A stretch of 32,000 nt of DNA from Desulfovibrio subterraneus. Its GTDB lineage: Bacteria; Desulfobacterota; Desulfovibrionia; Desulfovibrionales; Desulfovibrionaceae. The position numbers and the translations under genes were made by a program. The DNA lies in assembly GCF_013340285.1 (NCBI RefSeq), contig NZ_BLVO01000013.1, positions 13,574 through 45,573 of the forward strand. Reading direction: 5' to 3'. The notes beneath the pieces were generated by a model. The model ran no database searches. It was not told where the DNA came from and worked only from the letters and a program-made list of their open reading frames with translations. Shown piece after piece: positions 2,447 to 30,789 of this stretch (within the stretch, counting starts at the first letter, position 1; each line of letters starts with the position of its first letter).

Positions 2447-4557
2447 TGAATGCTGATCTCCACCCCGCCGGAAACCATGCCGGACAGGACAAGCGTGCCT
2501 TGCCTGTCGACAGTTACCGTATGCTTGCCGTTAACGGAGTCCACCGCCACCCGGGTGTCCGGTGGCAGGCCGCCGAGCGTGACCGTGCCTTTGCCGAATC
2601 CGTCATGCTGGAAGCGGACCTTCCGTGCATCGTATGTGAAGCCGCGTATCCAGCCGGTGGCGCTGCGGATGAACGGCCGTGCGTTGCGCGGATGGTCGGC
2701 GAGCACTATGCGGGCTTCACCGGCATCCGGTGCCAGATGCACGAAAAGCCCCTGAGGCTGCACATCGTAGCCGAGCACGTTCACCGAGTGCTCAAGGTCC
2801 GGCAGCTTTGCCGTGTCGTCATAGCGCACGCTGAGGCAGGCTCCGTAGTTGGTGAAGACATCGGCATCGCCGTCGCGCGCCACATGGGCCTGCGTAAAGG
2901 ACTGCACCATGGGGGGATAGGCGGATGTGAACACCCGTGCGGTATCCTGACGGGCCATCCAGTCATAGACGTCCAGCACAGCCTGCAATGATGCTTCATA
3001 TTCCGCACTGTAGAAGTGGTAGTACGCGTTAATGGGCATCAGTCTGCGCGGACTGCCTGTCCGTTCCATGGTGCGCGTGATGTAGCGGTAGGCATGGTAG
3101 GGGCCGGTCCACAGGTTTGTCAGAATATTCTCGTTGGCCTGTCCGGTGAAAACTTGCACATACGGCCCGACCTGCTTGTACAGGGGAGAGACCGTGGTGA
3201 GCGAGTTGTTGTGCTCGTCATAAATGGTATCGCCGCCGTTGATGTTCTGCAGGCCCGCCCCGGCCACTATGCGCATGACCGGTGTTTTGGGGTCGCATGA
3301 GCCGGACCACTGCATGAGGCGGCAGGGCTTGCCCGCCGGCGCGAGATGTTCGGTTATCCAGCGCGCCGACTCCACGATTTCCTTTTTGGGGTCGAAGGTA
3401 TAGCCCTTGACGGGGATACCGTATTGCTCAAGGCCAAGTTTCTCTTTGAACATCATGGCCTTGGCGTCATCGCCGGAATCCCAGTAGAACGGATGGCTGA
3501 AACTGTGCGACCCCGGTTCCACGTTGGGCATGGCGAACATGCTGCGGGCCACGTCCATGAGGTGGGCGTTGCCTTCGTATTTCGGGTCCACTTCGGCCTG
3601 AATGACCGATACGGTCACGGGAAAATCCACTTTGGCGAGCACCCGGTCACGGATGATCTCGGCGCAGTTCCTGGTCTTGTCCACATTGGTGAAGCCGTTG
3701 AATCCGTCGGCATCAATGTGCGAAAAGGCTATGCGTTTGCCGTTCAGCGTGGTGGGGGTGAGGGCTGGCTGGCCACGCAATCCCATGCTGTCTGCAACAA
3801 AGGCGAAGGGGTCAATATAGAGCTGCTTGCGAAAATCTGCGGGGTCCATCCAGCGGATGTATTCCGGCAGGACCATGGCACCCGCTTCGGACACGGCAAC
3901 GGCAATGCCGGTTGTGCCCTGCGCCTTGTTGCGCACGGTGAGCCACGGCGTGAGGCTCTTGTCGCCGGTGGCGGTGAACCGTTCAAAGACAGGCGGCAGG
4001 GGGGGGAGCCTGCGTTCAAAGTTCATCTGGCTGCCGACCGTTTCATAGGCGAGCAGAGTGCCTGCGGTGGTGGTTTGCTGTTCAAAGGCGAGGCCGAGCC
4101 GCGCCAGCAGTCTTGCGAGCGCCTCCTGTGTTGCGGGCGATGCTCCCTCTGCAATCTGCGTGGGATGGTTGAGGAAGATAATTCGTATGCCACGCTCGGA
4201 GGCAGCCAGAAGCCACCGGATGAGCCCTTCGGGATCATCTACGGTAAGTGCACTGTATGCGCAGACAACCGCACGCCATTCGGCAGGGTCGAGTTTGGCG
4301 GGCAGCGGATTGGCTACATCCTGATAGAATGAGAGCAGGCCGAAATAGTTGCCGGGCATGGCAAAGGCTCTGCGCCATGGGTTGTCAGTCTCAAGCTGCC
4401 CCGCGGCGCCGCTGTAAAGGATGAGTACCTTGCGGGCCACCGGCACAGGGGCGGCATGGCCGGATTCGGCTGTACCCGCCAGCACGGCGCAAAAGATGAG
4501 CAGGCACAGGCATATGCCCGCCATTCTGAAGAGAAAAGGGGTGAGGCGCTGTTGCAT
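2443..4557 (-). CDS. Secreted polysaccharide deacetylase-like protein (CE4-like, PelA deacetylase-region-like)
   Basis: 704-aa ORF. It has an N-terminal signal-like segment (MAGICLCLLIFCAVLAGTAES). HSFSH matches the CE4 motif H[ST]xxH, and FSHIDADGF resembles a variant of the CE4 Asp motif. A GGGGGAAC Shine-Dalgarno-like element precedes the ATG. The gene sits between a lipoprotein gene and a TPR gene. Confidence 0.72.
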   Translation of the reverse strand: MQQRLTPFLFRMAGICLCLLIFCAVLAGTAESGHAAPVPVARKVLILYSGAAGQLETDNPWRRAFAMPGNYFGLLSFYQDVANPLPAKLDPAEWRAVVCAYSALTVDDPEGLIRWLLAASERGIRIIFLNHPTQIAEGASPATQEALARLLARLGLAFEQQTTTAGTLLAYETVGSQMNFERRLPPLPPVFERFTATGDKSLTPWLTVRNKAQGTTGIAVAVSEAGAMVLPEYIRWMDPADFRKQLYIDPFAFVADSMGLRGQPALTPTTLNGKRIAFSHIDADGFNGFTNVDKTRNCAEIIRDRVLAKVDFPVTVSVIQAEVDPKYEGNAHLMDVARSMFAMPNVEPGSHSFSHPFYWDSGDDAKAMMFKEKLGLEQYGIPVKGYTFDPKKEIVESARWITEHLAPAGKPCRLMQWSGSCDPKTPVMRIVAGAGLQNINGGDTIYDEHNNSLTTVSPLYKQVGPYVQVFTGQANENILTNLWTGPYHAYRYITRTMERTGSPRRLMPINAYYHFYSAEYEASLQAVLDVYDWMARQDTARVFTSAYPPMVQSFTQAHVARDGDADVFTNYGACLSVRYDDTAKLPDLEHSVNVLGYDVQPQGLFVHLAPDAGEARIVLADHPRNARPFIRSATGWIRGFTYDARKVRFQHDGFGKGTVTLGGLPPDTRVAVDSVNGKHTVTVDRQGTLVLSGMVSGGVEISIQ

Positions 4558-4588
4558 AGGTTCCCCCGGAAAAGCTCCCCGAAGGGGG

Positions 4589-5155
4589 TTAGCGGCCTTC
4601 CGTGGCGGAACTGAGCTCCTGCACGGCCTTTCGGCACAGGGTCTGCGTCAGCATGTTGAGCGAGGTGTCGCAGCCGAAGAAACAGCCGCTGCTTTCCGTC
4701 AAGGAAGCCGCCCAGATCACTTCACCGGTCTTTACATCCATCATGCGCAGGTTCACGCCCACAACAGGGCTCTGATCCAGCCCGCGCTTGTAGCGGAATT
4801 CACTGACTGAGCCGTAGAAGATGGTATCCACACCCAGAGTCTTTCCTGCACGACGGGCAACGGCCTTGTCCATCACGTAATCAAGGTCTTCTTCACCGCC
4901 CTTGAGTGATTCAATCATTGCCGTGGTTTCGAGGAATGCATATCCCTTGAGTCCATACAGTTCCGTGGAAAGAATGTCGCTGACAATGCGTCCCGCATTG
5001 GGGTGGGCAGTCAGGTTGACCAAAGGCAGCACGGCAGCGGTGCGCTCCCCGTCCGGCATGGCGGCGGAATTGAAGAAGTGTTGTTGCGAGGCTGAACAGG
5101 CCGTCAGCGAAATGAGAAGGCACGCGGTCATGATGCAGCGAAAGATGGTGTTCAC
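4589..5155 (-). CDS. Small outer-membrane-type lipoprotein, PelC-like
   Basis: 188-aa ORF with a GTG start preceded by GGGGGA. Lipobox L-T-A-C (MNTIFRCIMTACLLISLTAC). The core (AVLPLVNLT...GSVSEFRYKRGLDQSPVVGVNLRMMDVKTGEVIW) has the flavour of the PelC / TolB-N-like lipoprotein fold. The assignment is from memory of the family, not from a search. Confidence 0.62.
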   Translation of the reverse strand: MNTIFRCIMTACLLISLTACSASQQHFFNSAAMPDGERTAAVLPLVNLTAHPNAGRIVSDILSTELYGLKGYAFLETTAMIESLKGGEEDLDYVMDKAVARRAGKTLGVDTIFYGSVSEFRYKRGLDQSPVVGVNLRMMDVKTGEVIWAASLTESSGCFFGCDTSLNMLTQTLCRKAVQELSSATEGR

Positions 5156-5248
5156 GTATATCCCCCTGGTTGATTGCGTTAGATTTTCATAGCCTCAGGG
5201 CCGCTCTTTTGCAATAATAACAGTTATCAAAAACTCCAAGAGGGGCGC

Positions 5249-6271
5249 ATGGCTACCTACTTTATACACTATTTGAAATATCACGTAAGTAATATTTTGG
5301 CGTTCCACATATTTGTGCTCATTATGCTCGCGTTGTTCGGCTCGCTTGCCGGGTGTGGTCCGGTGGGCGATCAGGTGCCGGAGCGCAGGGCGGACTCCAC
5401 TGTCCGTGACGGAGCTGATTCCATGGAGGCGCCTGTGAGACATGTACGCATTGTACCGCATCCCCGGCGCTGGGCACTGTGGCTGCAGGGGGCGCAACCG
5501 GATGCGGTGGCTGCCTCGGCCACGGATCTTGTCGTGGTGGACTACTCGGCAGACGGCACGGATGCTGCCGCGTTTACCCCGCAGCAGGTTGCCCGCATGC
5601 AGCAGGGCGGTCGTAAGGTGCTGTGTTATTTTTCCATCGGCGAGGCAGAAAGTTATCGCTTTTACTGGGATGCGCAATGGAAGGAAGCGCCTCCTCCCTT
5701 CCTCGGACCCGAGAACCCCGACTGGCCCGAGAACTACAAGGTTATGTACTGGCACGAACAGTGGTGGGATCTGGTGCTTCGCCCCTACATGGACAAGATT
5801 CTGGCAGCCGGATTTGACGGCGTGTACCTTGATATCGTGGATGCATACTGGTTCTGGTATGAACAGGGCCGCGATCTGCAGCTGTGCGCTGACGACATGA
5901 TCCGGCTGGTTGCCCGCATCGCCAACTACATGCGGACCGCCGGAGGTGCCGATTTCATCATCACTCCCCAGAATGCCGAGGGCATTTTCAACGATGCTTC
6001 GGAAGCCTCTGTCGCACGGTATCTTGAGGTCATGGACATGATCGGGGTTGAATCGCTGCTTTTCAATGTCACTCCCGAAGACAGTGTCTACCGTACGACC
6101 ATGCTCAGAAAGGTCGCAGATGCGGGGAAGACCGTACTCAACATCGAGTATATTCCGCTGGAACGCATGGCAGAATACCGCAACGCATTGACCACGCTGC
6201 CGTTTGCGCCTGTACCCTATCGTGCCGAACCGGACAGGGCGCTGGATTCGCTTGCCCCGCAGACCCCCTGA
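5249..6271 (+). CDS. GH114 / PelA-hydrolase-like (TM1410-type TIM-barrel) glycoside hydrolase lipoprotein
   Basis: 340-aa ORF with lipobox L-A-G-C. Motifs WALWLQG, DLVVVDYS, VLCYFSIGEAESYRFYW and GFDGVYLDIVDAY are typical of the Glyco_hydro_114 / PelA N-terminal hydrolase family. AGAGGGG Shine-Dalgarno-like element. Confidence 0.8.
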   Translation: MATYFIHYLKYHVSNILAFHIFVLIMLALFGSLAGCGPVGDQVPERRADSTVRDGADSMEAPVRHVRIVPHPRRWALWLQGAQPDAVAASATDLVVVDYSADGTDAAAFTPQQVARMQQGGRKVLCYFSIGEAESYRFYWDAQWKEAPPPFLGPENPDWPENYKVMYWHEQWWDLVLRPYMDKILAAGFDGVYLDIVDAYWFWYEQGRDLQLCADDMIRLVARIANYMRTAGGADFIITPQNAEGIFNDASEASVARYLEVMDMIGVESLLFNVTPEDSVYRTTMLRKVADAGKTVLNIEYIPLERMAEYRNALTTLPFAPVPYRAEPDRALDSLAPQTP

Positions 6272-14040: not shown

Positions 14041-14198
14041 AGTTCCCAAGCTGCCGGGCCATGCTGTCGGAAAACGCCATTCGGAATAGAGCAGCCGTAA
14101 GGATAGGCCGCGCTCAACGCCTTGTCCTGATGTCCGGATGATCGGGCAAATTACCAACGTAACCGCATGACAGGGCATCCGCCAATTCAGAGGACCAT

Positions 14199-14828
14199 GT
14201 GAAGGAACTAGAAACGTTTGTCTCCGTGACTTCTACCGGAGCTGCTACCGAAGCCTCCCCCGTAACATCCTCAGGCTGCGGCTGTTCGAGCCACGACGGA
14301 GGCAAGGGAGGCTGCGCCTGTGCAGAGGCTGCCGGTACGGAAAGCACCGCCTGCCTGTGTGCGGAGAATCCATCTGCCGCTGTTTCCGGTTGCGGCTGTT
14401 CATCGTCGGATGCTTCCCATGGTGGATCAGCCGGTGTGCAGCTCAAAGCCTATGATCCCTTTGCCGCACAGGGTGTCGCGCCGTTTTCCGGTAAAGAGGC
14501 GTCTGCGCCCAAGCCACTTGGCAGTACGCTGAAAATGGCGCCTGAAAAGTTCGCTCAAGAAAACTCCGCTCCAATAACGTCCGCTCCAATAACGTTCGCT
14601 CCGGAAAAGTCTGCTTCGGCTAAGTCCACTTCTGGCGAATCCGCCTGCTGCTGCACCCCGACGCAGAAGCAGGAACTGCGGCCTCTGGAACTTGCCGTCC
14701 CCGCTGCCTCCAAAGGCGGTTCCTGCTGCAGCGAGCAGCCTGCGGCATCCGCGTGCTGTTCCAGCCCCGATCCGTTCATGGCACAATTTTCGCGCGACAC
14801 CGCGTCTCCCGACGCGGAACCGTGCTGA
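14199..14828 (+). CDS. Cysteine-rich low-complexity protein (metallothionein-like CxC / CC(C) motifs), hypothetical
   Basis: 209 codons with a GTG start 4 nt after AGAGGA. It has 16 Cys: GCGC, GCAC, ACLC, GCGC, ACCC, SCC, ACC and a terminal C. No TM segment. It is on the same strand and in the same frame as hgcA, 63 nt upstream. Third-position GC is only moderate, so coding status is uncertain. Confidence 0.45.
   Translation: MKELETFVSVTSTGAATEASPVTSSGCGCSSHDGGKGGCACAEAAGTESTACLCAENPSAAVSGCGCSSSDASHGGSAGVQLKAYDPFAAQGVAPFSGKEASAPKPLGSTLKMAPEKFAQENSAPITSAPITFAPEKSASAKSTSGESACCCTPTQKQELRPLELAVPAASKGGSCCSEQPAASACCSSPDPFMAQFSRDTASPDAEPC
14565..14609 (+). repeat. 15-bp in-frame tandem repeat inside the Cys-rich ORF
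   Basis: TCCGCTCCAATAACG occurs twice (14565-14579 and 14580-14594), followed by a degenerate third unit TTCGCTCCGGAAAAG. This encodes SAPIT-SAPIT-FAPEK. Confidence 0.85.
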
Positions 14829-14840
14829 GGCCCTCCCCCG

Positions 14841-14858
14841 CGACCTGAGGCCAGGTCG
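14841..14858 (+). other. Hairpin between the Cys-rich ORF and hgcA (SECIS-like geometry, or a simple structural element)
   Basis: CGACCTG-AGGC-CAGGTCG: a 7-bp perfect stem with a 4-nt loop. The loop starts 19 nt after the in-frame TGA at 14826-14828. No U-tract follows. Confidence 0.5.
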
Positions 14859-14891
14859 TATGAGCGCGCGGGCTATGCCGTTTATCCCTGT

Positions 14892-15911
14892 GTGACGCAT
14901 TTTGTGGACACTCCCGCAGGTGACGTGCCGAGTATCACGCATGCGTGGGGGCTGCAGGACTGGCTGGGAACCGCGTTTGCGCGTCTGGGCGTGACCCGCA
15001 ACAACTACGCCGTTTCTCCCGGCCTGTATGCCATGGGTAATCCGGATGCGAACTCTCCGGTCATTGTCACCGCAAACTACAAACTCACCTTCGACGCCGT
15101 GCGTAGCGACCTTGCCGGACAGAATCTCTGGATGGTCGTGCTGGATACGCGTGGCATCAACGTGTGGTGCGCGGCAGGCAAGAATCTTTTTTCCACCGCC
15201 GAGGTCATCAAGCGACTGCAGCGGGTGCGGCTTGACCGCGTGGTGAAGCACCGTCGCATCATTCTGCCGCAGCTGGGCGCACCCGGTGTTTCCGCCAAGG
15301 AAGTGCGCCGCGCCACCGGTTTCAGCGTGGTATATGGCCCCGTGCTTTCAGCGGATCTTCCGGCATTTCTGGAATCCGGCATGCAGGCCACGACAGAAAT
15401 GCGTACTGTCCGTTTTCCGCTCAAGGAACGTGCGGTGCTCATTCCTGTGGAAATCATGCTGCTCTGGAAGACGCTGCTGCTTGCCTTTGCCGTCATGTTT
15501 GTCCTTTCGGGCATAGGGCCGGACATCTTCTCCTTCTCCGCTGCGGTGGGCAGGCTTGCGCCGTTTGCGTGGGCAACGCTCTTCGGTGTGCTGGCAGGGC
15601 AGGTTGCCGTGCCGGTTCTGCTGCCGGTGCTGCCTTTCAGGGCCTTTGCCGCCAACGGTGCCTTGGCCGGCGGGGTGGCGGTGCTGCCCATGCTGGCTTG
15701 CGCATGGCCGCTGGCAACATGGCTTGAGCTTGTGGTGCTCGCCGCATGGACGCCCTGTCTCGGATCGTTTCTGGCAATGAACTTCAGCGGGTCCACCCCC
15801 TATACCTCGCCCACGGGCGTGGAATGGGAGATGCGCCGCGCTGTTCCCCTGCAGATTCTTACCGTTGCCGTGTGCCTGTGCCTTTGGGTTGCGGCTGCCT
15901 TCATCGGATAG
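14892..15911 (+). CDS. hgcA: HgcA, corrinoid-binding mercury methyltransferase component with C-terminal 5-TM domain
   Basis: 339 codons. The N-terminal domain carries the diagnostic cap-helix motif GINVWCAAGK (N-V-W-C-A-A-G-K at 15159-15182; the Cys is residue 93 counted from the GTG at 14892), plus VTANYKLTFD and LPQLGAPGVSA. The C-terminal half has about five hydrophobic helices, for example LIPVEIMLLWKTLLLAFAVMFVL and LQILTVAVCLCLWVAAAFIG. Confidence 0.93.
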   Translation: MTHFVDTPAGDVPSITHAWGLQDWLGTAFARLGVTRNNYAVSPGLYAMGNPDANSPVIVTANYKLTFDAVRSDLAGQNLWMVVLDTRGINVWCAAGKNLFSTAEVIKRLQRVRLDRVVKHRRIILPQLGAPGVSAKEVRRATGFSVVYGPVLSADLPAFLESGMQATTEMRTVRFPLKERAVLIPVEIMLLWKTLLLAFAVMFVLSGIGPDIFSFSAAVGRLAPFAWATLFGVLAGQVAVPVLLPVLPFRAFAANGALAGGVAVLPMLACAWPLATWLELVVLAAWTPCLGSFLAMNFSGSTPYTSPTGVEWEMRRAVPLQILTVAVCLCLWVAAAFIG

Positions 15912-15920
15912 GGGGGGCGT

Positions 15921-16217
15921 ATGAAAGATTTTCGCTATATCGATGGTGTGGCCAGCATTGCACTGGAAGCCAAAACCTGTGTGGGCTGCGGCGTGTGCGT
16001 GCAGGTATGTCCGCATCAGGTGTTTACCGTACAAAAGGGCAAGGCCGTGTTTGCAGACCGCAATGCCTGCATCGAGTGTGGCGCATGCGCCAAAAACTGC
16101 CCGGTGGACGCCATACTCGTTACCCCCGGTGTGGGCTGTGCTTCGCTCATGATCAAGCGCTGGCTGCATGAGAAGGGCATTCCCGTCCGCCTTGGCGGCG
16201 GCACCGGCTGCTGCTAG
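15921..16217 (+). CDS. hgcB: HgcB, 2x[4Fe-4S] ferredoxin partner of HgcA
   Basis: 98 aa, starting 9 nt after the hgcA stop and preceded by a G7 Shine-Dalgarno-like run. Two CX2CX2CX3CP motifs (CVGCGVCVQVCP, CIECGACAKNCP), an extra Cys at residue 73 (GVGCAS), and a C-terminal vicinal pair GTGCC. Confidence 0.93.
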   Translation: MKDFRYIDGVASIALEAKTCVGCGVCVQVCPHQVFTVQKGKAVFADRNACIECGACAKNCPVDAILVTPGVGCASLMIKRWLHEKGIPVRLGGGTGCC

Positions 16218-16306: not shown

Positions 16307-16334
16307 GAAGCGCTGTGTTTGCACACAGCGCTTC
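16307..16334 (+). terminator. Stem-loop downstream of hgcB (probable terminator; weak U-tract)
   Basis: 12-bp perfect stem GAAGCGCTGTGT / ACACAGCGCTTC with loop TTGC, followed by TGGTTAAT. Confidence 0.5.
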
Positions 16335-22064: not shown

Positions 22065-22352
22065 ATTGCATTAATTCGAATGGATATGAAAATAAGTGCA
22101 AAATTAAAAACCAAATTGATGTTTTCCATTAAAACTTTGATGTAAAGTTGACGAAAATGGTCTGTGTGCGCTAGAAAAACTGCAGCTTGACCACACGGGA
22201 TTTGATCAGGTCTGCGCAGAATGCATGAGCAGGCAGAACCTACGTGTGTCTGCTCATTGTCTATGTTTCCGTCGCTGTGGTATTATGCCGGACCGTTCCG
22301 GTGCGGCCGCGGAAAAGAACGACGCCACGCTTTCTTTGAAGGAGACGAGAGT

Positions 22353-24152
22353 ATGCAGCTGGATGTGAACAACATTAAAACGTTGGACCCCAAGGATCAT
22401 CCTGACTGGGAAGTCGCGCAGGACGCCGAATCCCGCATGAAGACCATATATAAGCTTGGTGACGAGATGGGCCTTGAGGAGCGCGAGCTGCTGCCCTATG
22501 GTCACTACATGGGCAAAATTGATTACCGCAGCGTGCTCAAGCGCCTTGCGGACAAGCCTAACGGCAAGTTCGTGAACGTAACCGCCATCAACCCCACACC
22601 GCTGGGCGAAGGCAAGTCCACCACCACCATCGGCCTGGTGCAGGGCCTCGGCCGCAGGGGCAAAAAGGCTTCTGCCGCCATCCGCCAGCCCTCCGGCGGC
22701 CCCACCATGGGGGTGAAAGGCTCCGCCGCAGGCGGCGGCCGCTCGCAGTGCATTCCGCTCACGCCGTTTTCTCTCGGCTTCACCGGCGACATTAACGCCA
22801 TCATGAACGCCCACAACCTTGCCATGACCGCGCTTACCGCGCGCATGCAGCATGAGCGCAACTATTCCGACGAAAAGCTGCTCAAGCTTTCCGGCATGCC
22901 GCGCCTTGACGTGGACCCCACCCGCATCTCCATGGGCTGGGTCATAGACTACTGTGCGCAGGCGCTGCGTAACATCGTCATCGGCATGGACGGCGTGAAC
23001 GGTGCGCAGGACGGCTACATGATGCGCTCCAAGTTCGATATCGCCGTATCGTCCGAAGTCATGGCCATTCTTGCCGTTTCCAAGGACCTGAAGGACCTGC
23101 GCGAGCGCATGGGCAAGATCATCATGTGCTACGACAAGTTCGGCAAGCCGCTCACCACCAAGGATTTCGAGGTGGATGGCGCCATGACCGCATGGCTTGT
23201 GGATGCCGTGAACCCCAACCTTATCCAGACGCTCGAAGGCCAGCCCGTTATCGTGCATGCCGGTCCCTTCGCCAACATCGCCATCGGCCAGAGCTCCATC
23301 ATCGCCGATCAGGTGGGTCTCAAACTTTCCGACTATCATGTCACGGAATCCGGCTTCGGTGCCGACATCGGCTACGAGAAGTTCTGGAACCTCAAGTGCC
23401 ACTACAGCGGCCTTACGCCCGATGCCTCGGTTGTCGTGGCCACGGTGCGCGCGCTCAAGTGTCATGGCGGTGCGCCCATGCCCGTCCCCGGTAAGAAGCT
23501 GCCGGAAGCCTATACCACCGAGAACGTGGAATGGGTGGAAAAGGGCTGCGCCAACCTGCTGCACCATGTGAACATCGTGAAGAAATCCGGTGTATCCCCC
23601 GTGGTGTGCATCAACGCCTTTGTCACGGACACCCCGAACGAGATCAGAAAGATCCGCGAACTGTGCGAGGCCGCCGGTGCCCGCGTGGCTGTTTCCAAGC
23701 ACTGGGAATACGGCGGCGAAGGAGCGCTTGAGCTGGCAGATGCCGTTATGGACGCCTGCAACGACAAGACTACCTTCACCCCGCTGTATGACTGGTCCAT
23801 GCCTATGCGTCAGCGTATCGAAAAGGTGGCAACGGAAGTCTACGGCGCAGACGGCGTGGATTATTCATTTGAAGCCAAGGCTCGTCTCGAATCCATCGAG
23901 AACGATACCGAGCTTTCCAAGCTTGGCCTGTGCATGGTCAAGACGCACCTCTCGCTTTCCGACGATCCCACCCTCAAGGGTGTACCCAAGGGCTGGAGGC
24001 TCAAAGTGCGCGATGTGCTCACCTTCGGCGGGGCCGGATTCGTGGTGCCTGTGGCCGGTTCCATATCCCTCATGCCGGGAACGGGGTCAAACCCCTCGTT
24101 CAGGCGCATAGACGTGGATACGGATACGGGCCGCGTGGAAGGATTGTTCTAA
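22353..24152 (+). CDS. fhs: Formate--tetrahydrofolate ligase
   Basis: 599 aa from the ATG at 22353 (GAAGGAGA Shine-Dalgarno). Contains the P-loop [24 protein letters not shown] and [11 protein letters not shown]. The track ORF start at 22221 is an upstream artefact. Confidence 0.97.
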
Positions 24153-24154
24153 GA

Positions 24155-24186
24155 GAACGCCGGGGACAGCAATGTCTCCGGCGTTT
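24155..24186 (+). terminator. Stem-loop after fhs (probable terminator)
   Basis: GAACGCCGGGGACA-GCAA-TGTCTCCGGCGTTT (one G-U pair), followed by CTGCTG. The U-tract is weak. Confidence 0.45.
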
Positions 24187-24365
24187 CTGCTGTGCAGAGC
24201 AGGCCGGTGTGCCTCCTCACCCGCCGGCCTGCCTCATGCATTCTGTCGTACCTTCACAGCCCGTTCACAGACTCTTCTCGGTCCCTTGCGGGTGCGCATC
24301 CCGTGCGGATGGTGTACCCTTGTCTCGGGCCGAAAGGGCTGTACCTTGGCTGAGCAAATTGCGGG

Positions 24366-24394
24366 TTGACAGGGTGTCGCGTCTGGGCAATACC
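24366..24394 (+). promoter_or_regulatory. Possible sigma70 promoter for folD
   Basis: Consensus -35 TTGACA at 24366-24371, a 17-nt spacer, then a weak -10 AATACC. About 45 nt upstream of the folD ATG. Confidence 0.3.
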
Positions 24395-24439
24395 GTGCGC
24401 GGCACGACATCATACATATTTACGTCACGGGAGCCTGCC

Positions 24440-25354
24440 ATGAGCGCGGAAATTATCAGCGGCACCGACATGCGTACCGCCATTCTGGAAGAACTTGCCT
24501 CTGAAGTTGAGGCAATGAAGGCCAAGCACGGCAAGGTTCCGGGGCTGGTCACCATTCTGGTGGGTGAAAACCCCGCCTCGGTCAGCTATGTCACCCTGAA
24601 GGTGAAAACAGCCCTCAAGCTGGGCTTTCACGAAATTCAGGACAGCCAGCCCGAGTCCATTTCAGAAGAGGAGCTTCTCGCCCTCATCGAACGGTACAAT
24701 CAGGACCCGGATATTCATGGCATTCTGGTGCAGCTGCCCCTGCCCAAGCACATCAACGAAGAAAAGGTCATCTACGCCATCAATCCTGACAAGGACGTGG
24801 ACGGCTTTCACCCCGTCAACCTCGGCCGCATGGTCATAGGCGGCGACAACGGCGGGTTCCTTCCCTGCACGCCTGCGGGCATTCAGGAAATGATCGTGCG
24901 TTCCGGTACCGAGACCAGCGGTGCGGAAGTGGTTGTTGTGGGCCGCTCCAACATCGTGGGCAAGCCCATTTCCGTCATGATGGGCCAGAAGGGCCGTGGC
25001 GCGAACAGCACCGTCACCATGGTGCACACCCGCACCCATGACATTGCCGAACACTGCAAGCGTGCCGATATTCTTATCGTTGCCGCCGGTGTTCCCGGTC
25101 TGGTGAAGCCCGACTGGATCAAGCCCGGTGCCACCGTTATCGACGTGGGCGTGAACCGCGTGGGTACCAGCACCACGGGCAAGGCCATTCTTTCCGGCGA
25201 TGTGGATTTTGCCGAGGCCTGCAAGGTTGCCGGCAAGATCACGCCTGTTCCCGGCGGCGTGGGTCCCATGACCATTGCCATGCTGATGAAGAACACCGTA
25301 AAGTCGGCCTGGATGCATCTTGAACGCACAATGGCCGACACCCTGCCCAGATAG
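24440..25354 (+). CDS. folD: Bifunctional 5,10-methylene-tetrahydrofolate dehydrogenase / 5,10-methenyl-tetrahydrofolate cyclohydrolase
   Basis: 304 aa from the ATG at 24440. Contains PGLVTILVGENPASVSYV, GILVQLPLP, VVVGRSNIVGKP and PVPGGVGPMTIAMLM. The track ORF (from 23930) overlaps the end of fhs and is too long. Confidence 0.96.
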   Translation: MSAEIISGTDMRTAILEELASEVEAMKAKHGKVPGLVTILVGENPASVSYVTLKVKTALKLGFHEIQDSQPESISEEELLALIERYNQDPDIHGILVQLPLPKHINEEKVIYAINPDKDVDGFHPVNLGRMVIGGDNGGFLPCTPAGIQEMIVRSGTETSGAEVVVVGRSNIVGKPISVMMGQKGRGANSTVTMVHTRTHDIAEHCKRADILIVAAGVPGLVKPDWIKPGATVIDVGVNRVGTSTTGKAILSGDVDFAEACKVAGKITPVPGGVGPMTIAMLMKNTVKSAWMHLERTMADTLPR

Positions 25355-25364
25355 TATGTTTCAG

Positions 25365-25403
25365 CGCCGCCCCGCAGACGCGGGGCGGCGTATTCCTTTC
25401 TTT
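25365..25403 (+). terminator. Rho-independent terminator or attenuator between folD and the FDH genes
   Basis: CGCCGCCCCGC-AGAC-GCGGGGCGGCG: an 11-bp perfect stem followed by TATTCCTTTCTTT. Confidence 0.6.
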
Positions 25404-25415
25404 ACCGGAGAGCCG

Positions 25416-25946
25416 ATGAGCTGTTGCAATCATTCGCATGGCGTTGCTTCGGGCTGCTGCGGAACCGCGGAAAACGATTCCGAAATCACCCCCGAACAGT
25501 GGGCAGAGGTGCACGCCATCATCGCCCGTCACAAGGAAACTCCGGGTGCGCTCATCACCGTGCTGCGCGAGGCGCAGGGCGTGGTGGGATACTTCCCGAT
25601 CGAGCTTCTGGACTGCATTGCCGAGGGCATGAACATTCCTGCCAGCGACGTGTTTGGCGTGGTTTCGTTTTATTCCCTGTTTTCGCTCAACCCCAAGGGC
25701 CGTCACACCATCAAGGTGTGCACGGGCACTGCCTGCTACGTGAAGGGCATTCGCGAGGTCATCAACCGCATTGCCTCGGAATACGGCATTCGCGAGGGGG
25801 AAACCACCGAGGACCGCCGCTTTGACCTTGAAGGCGTGCGCTGTCTTGGTGCCTGCGGCCTTGCGCCTGTCATGGTTGTCGGGGAAGATACGCACGGAGC
25901 CGTATCTGCCGACAGAGTGCTTGAACTGCTCAAGAAGTACACCTAG
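25416..25946 (+). CDS. NuoE/HndA/HydC-like thioredoxin-fold [2Fe-2S] subunit of a soluble NAD(P)-linked formate dehydrogenase
   Basis: Start at 25416 with a GGAGAG Shine-Dalgarno. NuoE cluster ligands appear in context (KVCTGTACYVKG ... RCLGACGLAPVM). It has an unusual N-terminus, MSCCNHSHGVASGCCG. Confidence 0.9.
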   Translation: MSCCNHSHGVASGCCGTAENDSEITPEQWAEVHAIIARHKETPGALITVLREAQGVVGYFPIELLDCIAEGMNIPASDVFGVVSFYSLFSLNPKGRHTIKVCTGTACYVKGIREVINRIASEYGIREGETTEDRRFDLEGVRCLGACGLAPVMVVGEDTHGAVSADRVLELLKKYT

Positions 25947-25954
25947 GGGGCTGC

Positions 25955-27841
25955 ATGACGGTACAACATGATAACGCTTGCTGCTGTACAGCCGCCCGCC
26001 GTCTGACGGTGGACGACCTTGCAGTCATGCGCGAAGAGTATGCGGCCCGCCTGCATGCGCCGAACATGCGGCACATCTTTATCTGCGGCGGCACGGGCTG
26101 CCATGCCACCGGCAGCATAGCGGTGAAGAACCGCCTTGTGGAAGAAGTGGCCGCGCGCGGCCTGACGGATACCGTGCGTATTGTGGAAACGGGCTGTAAC
26201 GGCTTTTGCGCGCTCGGCCCGCTGCTGCTGGTGCATCCGGAGAACATCTTTTACCAGAAGCTTGCTGCTGATGACATTCCCGAACTCGTGGAAGAGCAGC
26301 TTGTGCACGGCAGGCAGGTGGAACGCCTGCTGTATCGTGACCCGCAGACAAAAAAGCCCATTCCGCATTTCGGCGATATTCCTTTTTTCGCCCGCCAGCA
26401 GCCGTGGACCCTGCGCAACAAGGGCGTGATCAACCCTGAATCCGTCGAGGACTACATAGGCCGCGACGGGTATCGCGGCACGGCCAGAGCCCTGCTGGAA
26501 ATGACGCCCGAATCCATTGTGCAGGAAATGCTCACCTCCGGCCTTCGCGGTCGCGGCGGGGCAGGGTTCCCCACGGGGATGAAGTGGCAGTTTGCCCAGC
26601 GCAGCGCGGGCGATGTGAAATACGTGCTCTGCAACGCGGATGAGGGCGACCCCGGTGCCTTCATGGACCGCTCCATTCTGGAAGCGGACCCCCATGCCGT
26701 GCTGGAAGGCATGATCATCGCGGCCCGCGCCATTAACGCGTATCAGGGCTACATCTACTGTCGTTCCGAATATCCCCTGGCCGTGCGCCGTGTGCAGATA
26801 GCCATAGAACAGGCCCGTGCACTTGGTCTGCTCGGTCACAATATTCTCGGTTCCGGCTTTGATTTCGACGTGGAAATCTATCAGGGCGCTGGCGCTTTCG
26901 TCTGCGGCGAAGAAACCGCGCTCATGCGATCCATCGAGGGCAAGCGCGGCATGCCGCGTCCGCGTCCTCCGTTCCCTGCGCACAAGGGGCTGTGGGAAAA
27001 ACCCACCATCCTCAATAACGTGGAAACGCTGGCCAACGTTGCGCAGATTATGCTCAACGGCGGTGCGTGGTACGCCTCTGTGGGAACGGAAAAGAGCAAG
27101 GGTACCAAGGTGTTCGCGCTCTCCGGCGATGTGAACAACATCGGCCTTGTGGAAGTGCCCATGGGTACCCCCCTGCGCAGCATTGTCTATGACATCGGCG
27201 GCGGCATTCCCAAAAAGCGCAAGCTCAAGGCCGTGCAGCTCGGCGGTCCTTCCGGCGGGTGTATTCCCGAGGCATATCTTGATGTCATCATCGACTATGA
27301 AGAGATAGCCAAGGTCGGCGCCATCATGGGCTCCGGCGGTGCCATTGTCATGGACGACCGCACTTGCATGGTGGATATGGCCCGCTTCTTCCTTGATTTC
27401 ATTCAGGACGAAAGCTGCGGCAAGTGTACTCCCTGCCGGGAAGGCACGCGCCGCCAGCTTGAACTGCTGGAAAAGATATGCGCAGGCAAGGGCGAAGATG
27501 GCGATATCGAGCTGCTGGAAGAGCTTTCTTCCATGATTACGGAATCGGCTCTGTGCGGGCTGGGGCAGACGGCGTCCAACCCTGTGCTTTCCGCCCTGCG
27601 GTATTTCCGCGATGAGTTCGATGCCCACATCAAGCAGAAGAAGTGTCCTGCCAAGCGCTGCGCCGCGCTGCTCGATTTCACGGTCAACGCGGACAAGTGC
27701 AAGAAGTGCGGCAAGTGCTTCCAGACCTGCCCTGTGCAGGCCATTGCGTGGCAGAAAAAGGAAGTGGCTGTGATCAATCGCGATATCTGTGTGCGCTGCA
27801 TGAGCTGCTTCGAGGCATGCCCCTTTGATGCCATAGACTAG
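25955..27841 (+). CDS. NuoF/HndC/HydB-like flavoprotein subunit (FMN, NAD(P)H; N-terminal [2Fe-2S] domain and C-terminal 2x[4Fe-4S])
   Basis: 628 aa. Contains GRGGAGFPTGMKW (FMN site), DEGDPGAFMDR and ESCGKCTPCREG (N3 cluster). A C-terminal ferredoxin domain has CKKCGKCFQTCP and CVRCMSCFEACP. An N-terminal thioredoxin-like domain has CGGTGCHA...CNGFCALGP. Confidence 0.92.
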   Translation: MTVQHDNACCCTAARRLTVDDLAVMREEYAARLHAPNMRHIFICGGTGCHATGSIAVKNRLVEEVAARGLTDTVRIVETGCNGFCALGPLLLVHPENIFYQKLAADDIPELVEEQLVHGRQVERLLYRDPQTKKPIPHFGDIPFFARQQPWTLRNKGVINPESVEDYIGRDGYRGTARALLEMTPESIVQEMLTSGLRGRGGAGFPTGMKWQFAQRSAGDVKYVLCNADEGDPGAFMDRSILEADPHAVLEGMIIAARAINAYQGYIYCRSEYPLAVRRVQIAIEQARALGLLGHNILGSGFDFDVEIYQGAGAFVCGEETALMRSIEGKRGMPRPRPPFPAHKGLWEKPTILNNVETLANVAQIMLNGGAWYASVGTEKSKGTKVFALSGDVNNIGLVEVPMGTPLRSIVYDIGGGIPKKRKLKAVQLGGPSGGCIPEAYLDVIIDYEEIAKVGAIMGSGGAIVMDDRTCMVDMARFFLDFIQDESCGKCTPCREGTRRQLELLEKICAGKGEDGDIELLEELSSMITESALCGLGQTASNPVLSALRYFRDEFDAHIKQKKCPAKRCAALLDFTVNADKCKKCGKCFQTCPVQAIAWQKKEVAVINRDICVRCMSCFEACPFDAID

Positions 27842-27950: not shown

Positions 27951-28092
27951 CACCGGCTGGACGTACTCAGGCAGAATAGTTTTTGTGTGTAAGCGCCTTT
28001 GGCGTTTTGCGAATGCCCCGGCGGGCAGGAAAGAAGCCCTGCACCCCCATAAGCATCGGGCATGTATACAATTAAGCTCTTTGGAATTCCGT

Positions 28093-30789
28093 ATGAGCAA
28101 TACACTGACATTGAACGGCATTACCTGCGAGTTCACACCCGGAGAAACCATTCTGGACGTGGCGCGGCGTAATCATGTGGATATTCCCACGCTTTGCCAC
28201 CTGAAAGGCACAACGCCCACGGGCGCATGCCGTATCTGCGTGGTGGAAGTGAAGGGCGCGCGCAGCCTTGTGGCTTCCTGTGCTGCACCGGCCGGTGCGG
28301 GAATGGAGATTCAGACCGAATCGCCAAGCGTGGTGCGGTCGCGCAGAATGAACCTTGAGTTGCTGCTTTCTTCCGGCTCGCACGACTGTCTGCTCTGTCC
28401 GGCTTCCGGCGACTGCACCCTGCAGGCGCTGGCTTTCCGCTACGGTGCCGGTGGCAGAAAATTCGAGGCGCGCAAGCCCGCGCACAAGCCGGATGCGTCA
28501 AATCCCTTTCTCATCCGCGATTTTTCCAAATGCATCCTGTGCGGGCGCTGTGTGCAGGCCTGCAAGCAGGTGCAGGTGAACGATGCCATAGACTACGGCT
28601 ATCGCGGGGCAAAGACCAAGATCATCACCGGCAACGACCTGCCTCTGGGCCAGTCTGACTGCGTGTTCTGTGGTGAATGCCTGCAGGTCTGCCCTGTGGG
28701 TGCCATTGCGCTCAAGGATGCCCGCAAGAAACCGCGCCAGTGCGAAACCCGCGCGGTGCGCACCACCTGTGCCTACTGCGGCGTGGGGTGTCAGGTGAAC
28801 CTGCATGTGCGCGATAATACCGTGCATATGGTCACGGGTGCCGATGTGGCCCCCAATCACGGCAGCCTGTGTGTGAAGGGGCGATTCGGCCTTGAATTCA
28901 TCGGCTCACCGGAGCGGCTGACAACGCCGCTGGTCCGCAAGGATGGCGAGCTTGTTCCCGCCACGTGGGATGAAGCGCTTGATGTGGTGGCGCAGCGGCT
29001 TGCCGCAGTGCGTGCGGAAGAGGGCGCAGATGCCGTGGGTGTGCTCACCTCGGCCCGCTGCACCAACGAAGAGAATTACCTGTTGCAGAAATTTGCCCGC
29101 GCAGTGGTCGGCACGAATAACGTCGACCACTGCGCGCGACTCTGACACTCCCCCACGGTGGCCGGTCTGGCCGCCGCATTCGGAAGCGGAGCTGCAACCA
29201 ACCCCATTCATGATGTGGTCAATGCTGATGTGGTGCTGATTACCGGCTCCAACATCACGGAGAACCATCCCGTGCTGGCTGCCGCACTGAAGCGTGCCGT
29301 GAAGTTCGGCAGGCCCGACGGCAAAAGAACCCGCCTTATCGTTGCCGACCCCCGCAAGGTGGGCATAGTCCGCCATGCGGATATCTGGATGCGCCCCACA
29401 CCGGGAACGGATGTGGCATGGATAAACGGCATTGCCCATGTGATTCTGCGCGAGAATCTGCACGATGCGGAGTACGTGACCGAGCGTACCGAGGAATTCG
29501 AGACATTCCGCGCTTCCGTTGCCTTGTTCACGCCGGAGCATGTGCAGGCCGTGACGGGCATTCCCGCCGCACAGGTGGAAGAGGCTGCGCGTCTGTATGC
29601 ATCAGGCAGAGCGCTCATTTTCTACTGCATGGGCATGACCCAGCATGTGAGCGGCACGGACAACGTGAAGGCGCTGGCGAATCTTGCCATGCTGTGCGGC
29701 AACATCGGCCGTGCGGGCGGCGGACTCAACCCCATCCGCGGACAGAACAACGTGCAGGGCGCATGCGACATGGGCGGGCTGCCGGACAAGCTGCCGGGCT
29801 ACCGTAATGTTGCGGATGCTGCCGCACGTGAGGCTGTGGGCGCCGTGTGGGGAACCACCCTGCCGGAAGGGCGGGGCATGACCTCGCGCGACATGTTCCA
29901 CGCCATGGAAAAAGGAACGCTGAAGGCGCTGTATCTGGTGGGCGAAAACCCCATGGTGTCCCATGCCGATCTGGGGCATGCGGAACGGTGCTTTGATGCC
30001 CTCGATTTCCTTGTGGTGCAGGATATTTTTCTCACCGAGACGGCGCGTCGGGCAGATGTGGTGCTGCCTTCGGCTTGCTTTGCAGAAAAGGACGGCACCT
30101 TCACCAACACCGAACGCCGCGTGCAGCGCGTACGCAAAGCCGTGAACGCACCGGGCGAAGCGCTGGCAGACTGGCGCATAGTCTGTGCGTTGGCAGAACG
30201 CATGGGTGCCACATGGCAATTCCGTTCACCGCAGGATGTGATGCGTGAGATTGCGGCTGTTACCCCCTCCTACGCAGGCATTTCCCATGGCCGGATAGAG
30301 GAGGAAGGAATTCACTGGCCGTGTCCGCATGACGAACATGAGGGTACCCCCATTTTGCACACGCAGGGCTTCCTGCGCGGCAAGGGGCGCTTTCATGCCG
30401 TATCCTTCGTGCCTCCGGCGGAACTGCCGGATGCCGACTATCCGTTCATCCTGACCACGGGCCGCGTGCTCTATCAGTACCATACCGGCACCATGACCCG
30501 TAAGGCCAAGGGCCTTGCCGCCAAGGAAGCTGAGTGCTTTGTGGAATTGGCCCGTGAAGATGCGCTGCGTCTGGGAATAGGGCAGAGGATGGATGTGCGC
30601 GTGACCTCGCGCCGTGGCAGCATAGTGGTGAAGGCCCGCATTTCACCCAAGGCGGTGGCGGGTACGGTGTTCATTCCCTTCCACTTTGCCGAGGCGGCTG
30701 CAAACCGGCTGACGCACGATGCGTCTGATCCGGCATCCGGCATCAGCGAGTTCAAGGTTTGCGCCGTGCGTGTGGAGCCTGCGGTCTGA
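28093..30789 (+). CDS. fdhA: Selenocysteine-containing formate dehydrogenase catalytic subunit with NuoG-like N-terminal Fe-S domains (in-frame TGA at 29143-29145 read as Sec)
   Basis: Two track ORFs (27985..29145 and 29158..30789) share one frame and are joined across a TGA in the conserved context [26 protein letters not shown]. The N-terminus has [2Fe-2S] (CRICVVEV) and 4Fe-4S motifs (CILCGRCVQAC, CVFCGECLQVCP). The body is a molybdopterin oxidoreductase. I placed the start at the ATG at 28093 (MSNTLTLNGI). Confidence 0.93.
29143..29176 (+). promoter_or_regulatory. Sec codon plus bacterial SECIS hairpin of fdhA
   Basis: After the UGA comes GGUGGCC-GGUCU-GGCCGCC: a 7-8 bp stem with one G-U pair and a GGUCU apical loop. 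The loop begins 18 nt after the UGA. It resembles the E. coli fdhF SECIS loop (GGUC). Confidence 0.75.

Follow-up and report, generated by a model that had tools for sequence, protein, structure and literature searches.

The window analyzed here, a 32,000-nt stretch of DNA from Desulfovibrio subterraneus, carries on its forward strand the genes hgcA and hgcB, which encode a membrane-tethered corrinoid protein and its ferredoxin partner. The core of hgcA is a 339-codon open reading frame (ORF) with a GTG start (14892–15911), and hgcB (98 codons, 15921–16217) begins on the same strand after a 9-nt gap, an arrangement that is repeated in related loci. Upstream lies a Cys-rich ORF (14199–14825), in frame with hgcA, with one TGA (14826–14828) between the two. 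The annotated hgcA appears to be mis-bounded: the gene most likely starts some 700 bases further upstream, with the UGA read as selenocysteine (Sec). The best joint explanation, to which we assign a probability of about 0.8, is that the locus encodes the HgcAB of D. subterraneus, with a full-length, Sec-containing HgcA that runs from GTG 14199 through a long Cys-rich tail.

The hgcA–hgcB gene pair

The 339- and 98-residue products were identical to GFM33045.1 and GFM33046.1/WP_174404739.1, respectively, from D. subterraneus DSM 101010, and the RefSeq names of both are already HgcA and HgcB; this core finding is of a known, annotated kind. The initial annotation, made from the sequence alone, had called the pair hgcA–hgcB, and a profile hidden Markov model check agreed, placing both products above the curated NCBI equivalog cut-offs. 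HgcA scored 414.7 bits against NCBIfam NF040863 (cut-off 275), covering profile positions 1–324 of 325, and HgcB scored 118.9 bits against NF040864 (cut-off 99). At E ≤ 1e-10, HgcA had 7715 homologues. We regard the identity of the gene pair as virtually certain.

The N-terminal half of the HgcA core had been proposed to resemble the cobalamin-binding domain of the corrinoid iron–sulfur protein (CFeSP), and the searches bore this out. The corrinoid-binding domain (residues 38–155 in the 339-residue numbering; 15003–15356) matched CdhD at 61.5 bits, the only Pfam match for HgcA, and a PDB sequence search returned CFeSP large subunits only (2h9a, 4c1n and 4djd; E ~1e-10). For the 360 residues that follow the TGA, AlphaFold2 gave a model with a mean predicted local distance difference test score (pLDDT) of 91.7 and a predicted template modeling score of 0.82. 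When this model was run against the PDB library with Foldseek, the top match was the published HgcAB model 9a0b_A (E 1e-22), with CFeSP structures next. The expected C-terminal array of about five transmembrane helices was recovered as well: the transmembrane domain (15420–15908) has five spans by hydropathy and in the AlphaFold2 model (helices within residues 198–359 of 360), the first of which is split in two by the DSSP assignment.

The cap-helix motif GINVWCAAGK occupies residues 88–97 (15153–15182), with the Cys93 codon at 15168–15170. Motif and Cys number stand as first described; the range originally given for the motif, 15159–15182, spans NVWCAAGK only. Across 120 homologues, the N, W, C, A, G and K of the motif were invariant and the V nearly so (at least 90%). 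The proposal that the cap-helix Cys is the lower axial ligand to cobalt now has support from EXAFS, which gave a Co–S distance of 2.5 Å; the same work identified S-adenosylmethionine (SAM), not methyl-tetrahydrofolate, as the methyl donor (Zheng et al. 2024, PMC11588087).

The ferredoxin showed every feature that had been ascribed to it. HgcB has Cys at positions 20, 23, 26, 30, 50, 53, 56, 60, 73, 97 and 98; the first eight make up two [4Fe–4S] cluster motifs of the form CX2CX2CX3CP, CVGCGVCVQVCP and CIECGACAKNCP. Cys73 (codon TGT, 16137–16139) sits in the sequence GVGC, and Cys97 and Cys98 form the C-terminal Cys–Cys pair (16209–16214).

In these respects the pair resembles HgcA and HgcB of Pseudodesulfovibrio mercurii ND132 and Geobacter sulfurreducens PCA, which are reportedly the proteins described by Parks and colleagues in 2013: the genes are adjacent, HgcA combines a CFeSP-like domain, NVWCAAGK with Cys93 and five transmembrane helices, and HgcB has the two CX2CX2CX3CP motifs, Cys73 and the C-terminal Cys–Cys. 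The D. subterraneus HgcA core was 53–59% identical to Pseudodesulfovibrio HgcA proteins, in an alignment that did not contain ND132 itself. Its likeness to the CFeSP large subunit (AcsC/CdhE; 2h9a, 4c1n, 4djd, 2ycl, 9fzy) lies in the cobalamin-domain fold, with ~26–29% identity over ~125–145 residues. CFeSP lacks the cap-helix Cys of HgcA (it has …SVLTAWAAGKF) as well as a transmembrane domain and an HgcB partner, and it carries an N-terminal [4Fe–4S] domain and a triosephosphate isomerase barrel.

The in-frame UGA and the hairpin that follows it

The 339-codon ORF that had been taken as the whole of hgcA is present as described, but its 5′ boundary is probably wrong, with the gene extending upstream through UGA 14826. 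GTG 14892 is simply the first start-type codon after the in-frame TGA and has no Shine–Dalgarno sequence. Gene callers disagree on the start, giving products of 339, 335 or 328 residues, and conserved coding sequence extends upstream of GTG 14892. The 21 codons that link the TGA to this GTG (GPPPRPEARSYERAGYAVYPC; 14829–14891) contain no start codon and are conserved as coding sequence in the alignment of homologues: the linker residues ERAGYAVYPC align with a conserved (K/R)PGY…FV segment, and the linker as a whole aligns with G-P-x-x-G-P…(K/R)PGY…FV, which is conserved in longer homologues.

The TGA falls in the motif P-C-U-G-P (…DAEPC-TGA-GPPP…), the motif described by Haft and Gwadz. Longer Cys-type homologues have APC-C-GP at the site where the window has EPC-TGA-GP. 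The same layout as in D. subterraneus, a small ORF ending in …(A/E)PC followed by TGA and in frame with hgcA, was found in P. indicus, in two related metagenome-assembled genomes (MAGs) and in close strains. The comparative set was obtained by scanning one genome per GTDB species and keeping the best 80 hgcA loci, P. mercurii ND132 not being among them; with other loci added, the motif is present in 88. In these 88 loci, the motif Cys was followed by TGA in 39 and by TGC or TGT in 49, and in none by any other codon or stop. A single locus out of 89 hgcA loci (L084, from a Desulfamplus sp. MAG) was without a CC/CU motif upstream of the conserved PGY segment.

Downstream of the TGA, a hairpin resembling a selenocysteine insertion sequence (SECIS) can be drawn as GCGACCUG-AGGC-CAGGUCGU (14840–14859, forward strand), with an 8-bp stem and the loop at nt 23–26 after the U of UGA. 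Counting from this U, 32 of 33 distinct TGA-type loci had an unbroken hairpin of 5 bp or more at about nt 15–34, with its loop within nt 21–26, versus 2 of 49 Cys-type loci (Fisher test, 3e-19). The background rate was 13% in composition shuffles and 15% when the same peptides were given redrawn codons. The stems covary among loci, which have GCGACCUG/CAGGUCGU, GACCCC/GGGGUC, CGCCAC/GUGGCG, AACCCCG/CGGGGUU, UCCCC/GGGGA and others.

The window also contains an fdhA gene of the same kind. Two ORFs on the forward strand (27985–29142 and 29146–30789) are in frame across TGA 29143–29145, reading HCARL-U-HSPTVAG, and match positions 1–128 and 130–672, respectively, of the formate dehydrogenase alpha model TIGR01591. 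An 8-bp hairpin at 29156–29176 has the same spacing as that of hgcA. In both genes, the hairpin starts 13–14 nt after the UGA and has an 8-bp stem and a G-rich loop of 4–5 nt at nt 22–26; the sequences are unrelated, the loop being GGUCU in fdhA and AGGC in hgcA. This fdhA encodes a classical selenocysteine formate dehydrogenase alpha subunit and gives indirect support for the use of Sec by the host.

Selenoprotein HgcA has been published (Haft & Gwadz 2023, J Bacteriol 205:e0025922; preprint 10.1101/2022.07.06.499078), and HgcA is listed among selenoproteins in a 2026 review. According to the preprint, most HgcA proteins are selenoproteins in which PCUGP precedes the old start and whose corrected lengths are 363–400 residues, and HgcB residue 73 is Sec in 6.4% of HgcB proteins. 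The D. subterraneus protein fits this description in having PCUGP and in the existence of Cys–Cys homologues; its HgcB has Cys at residue 73. Because Sec-containing HgcA had already been described by these authors, the Sec reading is a confirmation of published work, to which the present analysis adds the SECIS covariation; in the passages of the preprint consulted, no mention of an hgcA SECIS hairpin was found. We consider decoding of UGA 14826 as Sec to be very probable.

The cysteine-rich region before the UGA

In its maximal form, the proposed full-length hgcA (14199–15911) is one frame of 570 codons plus stop, with the single internal TGA, read as Sec, at codon 210. The 209 codons before it (14199–14825), which correspond to the RefSeq hypothetical protein WP_243452101.1, contain 16 Cys, arranged as four CxC units (codons 27–67; nt 14277–14399), one CCC (14646–14654), two CC pairs (14724–14729 and 14754–14759) and Cys209 (14823–14825). 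A Shine–Dalgarno-like GAGGA (14190–14194) lies 4 nt before GTG 14199, and the sister species D. mangrovi has AGAGGG before its corresponding GTG. Shorter options for the hgcA start are ATG 14535 (458 residues) and ATG 14778 (377 residues), neither of which is preceded by a Shine–Dalgarno sequence.

Selection on the tail was assessed against two related loci, L090 and L091, whose tails are 81–88% identical to that in the window; the near-identical strains L002 and L003 were uninformative for substitutions, since they differ in a 15-nt repeat. The ratio of nonsynonymous to synonymous substitution rates (dN/dS) was 0.21–0.23 in the hgcA frame and 1.4–1.9 in the other two frames; the tail is protein-coding and under purifying selection. 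The core of hgcA gave 0.05–0.08 in the same comparison. All 16 tail Cys were conserved. Constraint increased towards the Sec, pN/pS falling by thirds of the tail from 0.40–0.64 through 0.21–0.26 to 0.12–0.16. Length variants of 194, 204, 209 and 214 residues occur among strains, all of them in frame, and arise from the 15-nt tandem repeat at 14565–14602 (2.5 copies, encoding SAPIT units).

No Pfam family matched the tail, and phmmer, run exhaustively against 1.84 billion representatives, found no homologues outside the D. subterraneus clade and D. mangrovi; one candidate from the representative search, P0153, was a spurious repeat match. In 82 other loci, the longest open stretch upstream of CU/CC had a median of 45 codons and usually 1–6 Cys, compared with 209 codons and 16 Cys in D. 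subterraneus. The minimal ND132 extension, as quoted by Haft and Gwadz, has 14 codons before the Sec, and the maximal D. subterraneus model of 570 residues, with 16 Cys before the Sec, exceeds the corrected lengths of 363–400 residues given there; the possible second Cys–UGA with hairpin in D. mangrovi, described below, is a further difference. The size of the tail is what looks new: it appears to be a lineage-specific variant of HgcA, split off as a hypothetical protein in current annotation. The tail is probably disordered. Translation of all 209 codons as part of HgcA is, in our judgment, reasonably probable.

Several repeats occur within the tail. The four CxC units all read TGC-x-TGT and are spaced 12–13 codons apart, and a direct repeat, TC(A/C)GG(C/T)TGCGGCTGTTC (14271–14287 and 14385–14401), codes for the first and fourth GCGC units, which suggests internal duplication of CxC units. 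An 18-nt inverted repeat (14662–14679 and 14716–14733; 83% complementary, 36-nt spacer) also lies in the tail coding region. It gave rise to microRNA-like Rfam matches in 14600–15100, which were dismissed as chance.

The D. mangrovi homologue (CP104208.1; positions 4001–5815 of locus L093) contains two TGAs, at 4391–4393 and 4730–4732. Its CxC region shares 58% identity with the D. subterraneus region at a dN/dS of 0.24, is in frame with hgcA and ends in …GSGFC-TGA, in frame with the rest. Cys precedes both TGAs, and both are followed by an 8-bp hairpin at nt 15–34. The hairpin after the first TGA (−17.7 kcal/mol, z −2.05) has SECIS geometry. Readthrough of both TGAs would give a product of 604 residues, so that D. 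mangrovi hgcA may, judging by its sequence, encode two selenocysteines. The deposited GenBank model has 377 residues and an ATT start, which implies that the annotators already read the second TGA as Sec, without a real start codon. This ATT stands at the position of ATG 14778, where D. mangrovi has no start codon, and ATG 14778 is therefore disfavored as a conserved start.

Several observations weigh against a Sec-containing HgcA that includes the whole tail. Long ORFs split by an in-frame TGA occur 10 times in the window, 8 of these pairs being artefacts; because such pairs are common in non-coding frames of 59% GC DNA, a split ORF alone is no evidence of selenocysteine. None of selA, selB, selC and selD was found in the window, and a tRNA scan of the window found no tRNA genes. 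The single-sequence folding energy of the hgcA hairpin was not significant (z −0.8 to −1.4), so that the hairpin argument rests on the comparison between loci. Apart from the chance microRNA-like matches, Rfam yielded no match to a SECIS or any other family, either in 14600–15100 at permissive E-values or over the whole window at gathering thresholds. The first 70 codons of the tail are under weak constraint (the pN/pS of 0.40–0.64 given above), its GC content at third codon positions (GC3) is an atypical 0.58, versus ~0.70 in neighboring genes, and Prodigal called the tail ORF in some contigs only. The codon-position GC is probably skewed by the Ala/Ser/Pro/Cys composition. In D. mangrovi, the TGA after the CxC ORF could be a genuine stop, in which case the CxC ORF would encode a separate protein there. 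Finally, ND132 HgcA that begins at its annotated start, and so lacks the Sec extension, was active in Hg methylation in E. coli lysate (PMC11588087), so the tail is not essential in vitro, and no Hg methylation assay for D. subterraneus was found in the searchable literature.

One alternative keeps the two genes as annotated, with a 209-residue Cys-rich protein that ends at TGA 14826 and a Sec-free HgcA of 328–339 residues that starts at GTG 14892, 14904 or 14925. This is the arrangement in GenBank and RefSeq (GFM33045.1, 339 residues; WP_269890921.1, 328 residues; WP_243452101.1, 209 residues), the likewise truncated ND132 protein is active in vitro, and the 339-residue ORF starts to match the NCBIfam HgcA profile at residue 12. 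However, none of these GTGs has a usable Shine–Dalgarno sequence, an AGGTGA being located only 1 nt from 14925, and all three are preceded by conserved coding sequence in which no start codon follows the TGA. The AlphaFold2 model also begins a strand at residue 1 of the 339-residue ORF, leaving no spare N-terminus. Moreover, a genuine end of an upstream gene would have to account for a stop that is always TGA and alternates with Cys codons only, and for a position-specific, covarying hairpin confined, within the counts given above, to TGA-type loci. We consider this arrangement improbable. An HgcA of ordinary size, with Sec but starting at ATG 14535 or ATG 14778, would leave the CxC region (14199 to ~14530) as a separate upstream gene or as sequence not translated as part of HgcA. 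Such a protein would be closer to the published 363–400 residues and to the median upstream stretch of 45 codons in other loci, and the first half of the tail does show weaker constraint and lower GC3. In D. mangrovi, downstream of the TGA after the CxC ORF come GGAG and then an ATG, which precedes the second TGA by exactly 97 codons and thereby matches the position of ATG 14535. On the other hand, no stop codon separates the CxC region from the remainder in D. subterraneus, both ATGs lack a Shine–Dalgarno sequence, and ATG 14778 is replaced by ATT in D. mangrovi, where the CxC ORF is in frame and its terminal Cys–TGA is followed by the 8-bp hairpin with z −2.05. Purifying selection on the CxC region further indicates that it is translated in some form. 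A start at either ATG therefore seems unlikely, though worth serious consideration.

A different kind of objection concerns function, namely that the protein could be one that does not methylate Hg, either a corrinoid protein of the CFeSP/CdhD type or an HgcAB-like paralogue, or could have another physiological role such as halomethane dehalogenation. The sole Pfam match is indeed to CdhD, fhs, folD and formate dehydrogenase genes lie 6–14 kb downstream, and the native role of HgcAB is debated, with CCl4 dechlorination and a link to ArsR/S-adenosylhomocysteine regulation having been reported. Placement with the CFeSP/CdhD paralogues nevertheless fails: the HgcA and HgcB equivalogs pass their cut-offs, whereas the CFeSP gamma model reached 83.2 bits against a cut-off of 306, matching only its last 125 profile positions, and the HgcAB-like fusion model NF043039 reached 209.2 bits against 285, the two genes being separate here. 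The cap-helix Cys, the transmembrane domain, and Cys73 and the Cys–Cys pair of HgcB are all present, and another native substrate would leave the methylating capacity intact. A non-methylating protein is thus highly improbable, and the full-length, Sec-containing HgcA translated from GTG 14199 remains our preferred explanation.

Proposed mechanism and genomic context

The core mechanism is established for the HgcAB family, and we infer that it also holds for D. subterraneus. The two [4Fe–4S] clusters of HgcB would reduce the cobalamin bound in the CFeSP-like domain of HgcA to Co(I), which would be methylated by SAM. With the Cys93 thiolate of the cap helix as the lower cobalt ligand, the methyl group would then be transferred to Hg(II), yielding methylmercury.

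For the extended protein, translation would begin at GTG 14199 and proceed through the 209-codon Cys-rich tail, with UGA 14826 decoded as Sec by means of the hairpin at 14840–14859. After the Sec, a flexible linker of ~20 residues would lead into the corrinoid domain. In the AlphaFold2 model, pLDDT is ~62 over the 20 residues that directly follow the Sec, and the first β-strand begins exactly at the old GTG, so that the linker is probably flexible and the Cys–Sec pair would sit on a flexible tether. This pair, with the 15 further Cys of the tail (four CxC, one CCC and two CC), may form an arm for the capture and relay of soft metals, passing Hg(II) or the native substrate on to the methyl-cobalamin site alongside the C-terminal Cys–Cys of HgcB. 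The tail can be likened, as a functional analogy, to the CxC/CC clusters of metallothioneins and to the Cys-pair relay arms of NmerA, the MerA C-terminus and the HgcB C-terminus: it has dense CxC, CC and CCC units within a segment of low complexity that is rich in Ala, Ser, Gly and Pro, and it is apparently tethered flexibly to a metal-handling enzyme. It differs from these proteins in having no sequence family match, and its metal binding is putative.

Tentatively, and with somewhat less than even confidence, we suggest that HgcA of this lineage is a selenoprotein of 570–604 residues, with a metallothionein-like poly-Cys N-terminus (16 Cys and one Sec, or perhaps two Sec in D. mangrovi) that relays soft metal through the Cys–Sec pair. 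If so, Hg methylation in these bacteria would be selenium-dependent and more efficient at trace Hg, and D. mangrovi would have the first HgcA with two Sec. An arm so exaggerated and so easily deleted would be a natural test case for the route of Hg(II) to the methyl-cobalamin site and for the effect of selenium on methylation. There are also consequences for annotation. Databases, hgcA reference sets and expression constructs that use the annotated start lose the Cys–Sec motif, and current D. subterraneus annotation turns the front of HgcA into a separate hypothetical protein. The more routine part concerns the organism. Methylmercury production has hgcAB as its accepted genetic marker, and this deep-subsurface Desulfovibrio is accordingly predicted, from its gene content, to make methylmercury.

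The hgcAB pair is flanked upstream by a divergently transcribed HhH-GPD glycosylase gene and downstream by hrpB in convergent orientation. A perfect 12-bp inverted repeat with a 4-nt loop and no clear T-tract lies between hgcB and hrpB (16307–16334). This palindrome probably terminates the hgcAB operon; a consensus terminator scan did not flag it, and a scan for sigma-70 consensus sequences found no promoter. No arsR-like regulator was found upstream of hgcA in the window, in contrast to P. indicus (L008), where an ArsR-type regulator gene (5513–5925) is followed immediately by the 5′ extension of hgcA that contains the Sec. Gene callers put a 33-codon "small ORF" between these two P. indicus genes, but it is in fact the beginning of hgcA. 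The initial annotation had also stated that mer genes are absent. In agreement, none of the larger ORFs yielded a mer-family domain (the small ORFs were not all profile-scanned) and no GMTCxxC occurred in any frame; pattern matches of a MerT-like type were off-frame artefacts.

Three further predicted ORFs, at 404–2284 (forward strand, 626 residues), 2443–4557 (reverse, 704 residues) and 5195–5755 (reverse, 186 residues), matched no Pfam or NCBIfam family. The fdhA gene is preceded by NuoE-like (25320–25946) and NuoF-like (25955–27841) genes, a combination that suggests a formate dehydrogenase linked to nicotinamide adenine dinucleotide. Further upstream, 6–9 kb downstream of hgcAB, fhs (formate–tetrahydrofolate ligase) and folD form a C1/folate cluster on the forward strand (22221–25354), in which the FolD Pfam matches cover residues 176–460 of ORF 23930–25354. 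The cluster neighbors hgcAB although the methyl donor is now held to be SAM rather than methyl-tetrahydrofolate. FTHFS was also found near hgcAB in the related loci L006 and L007.

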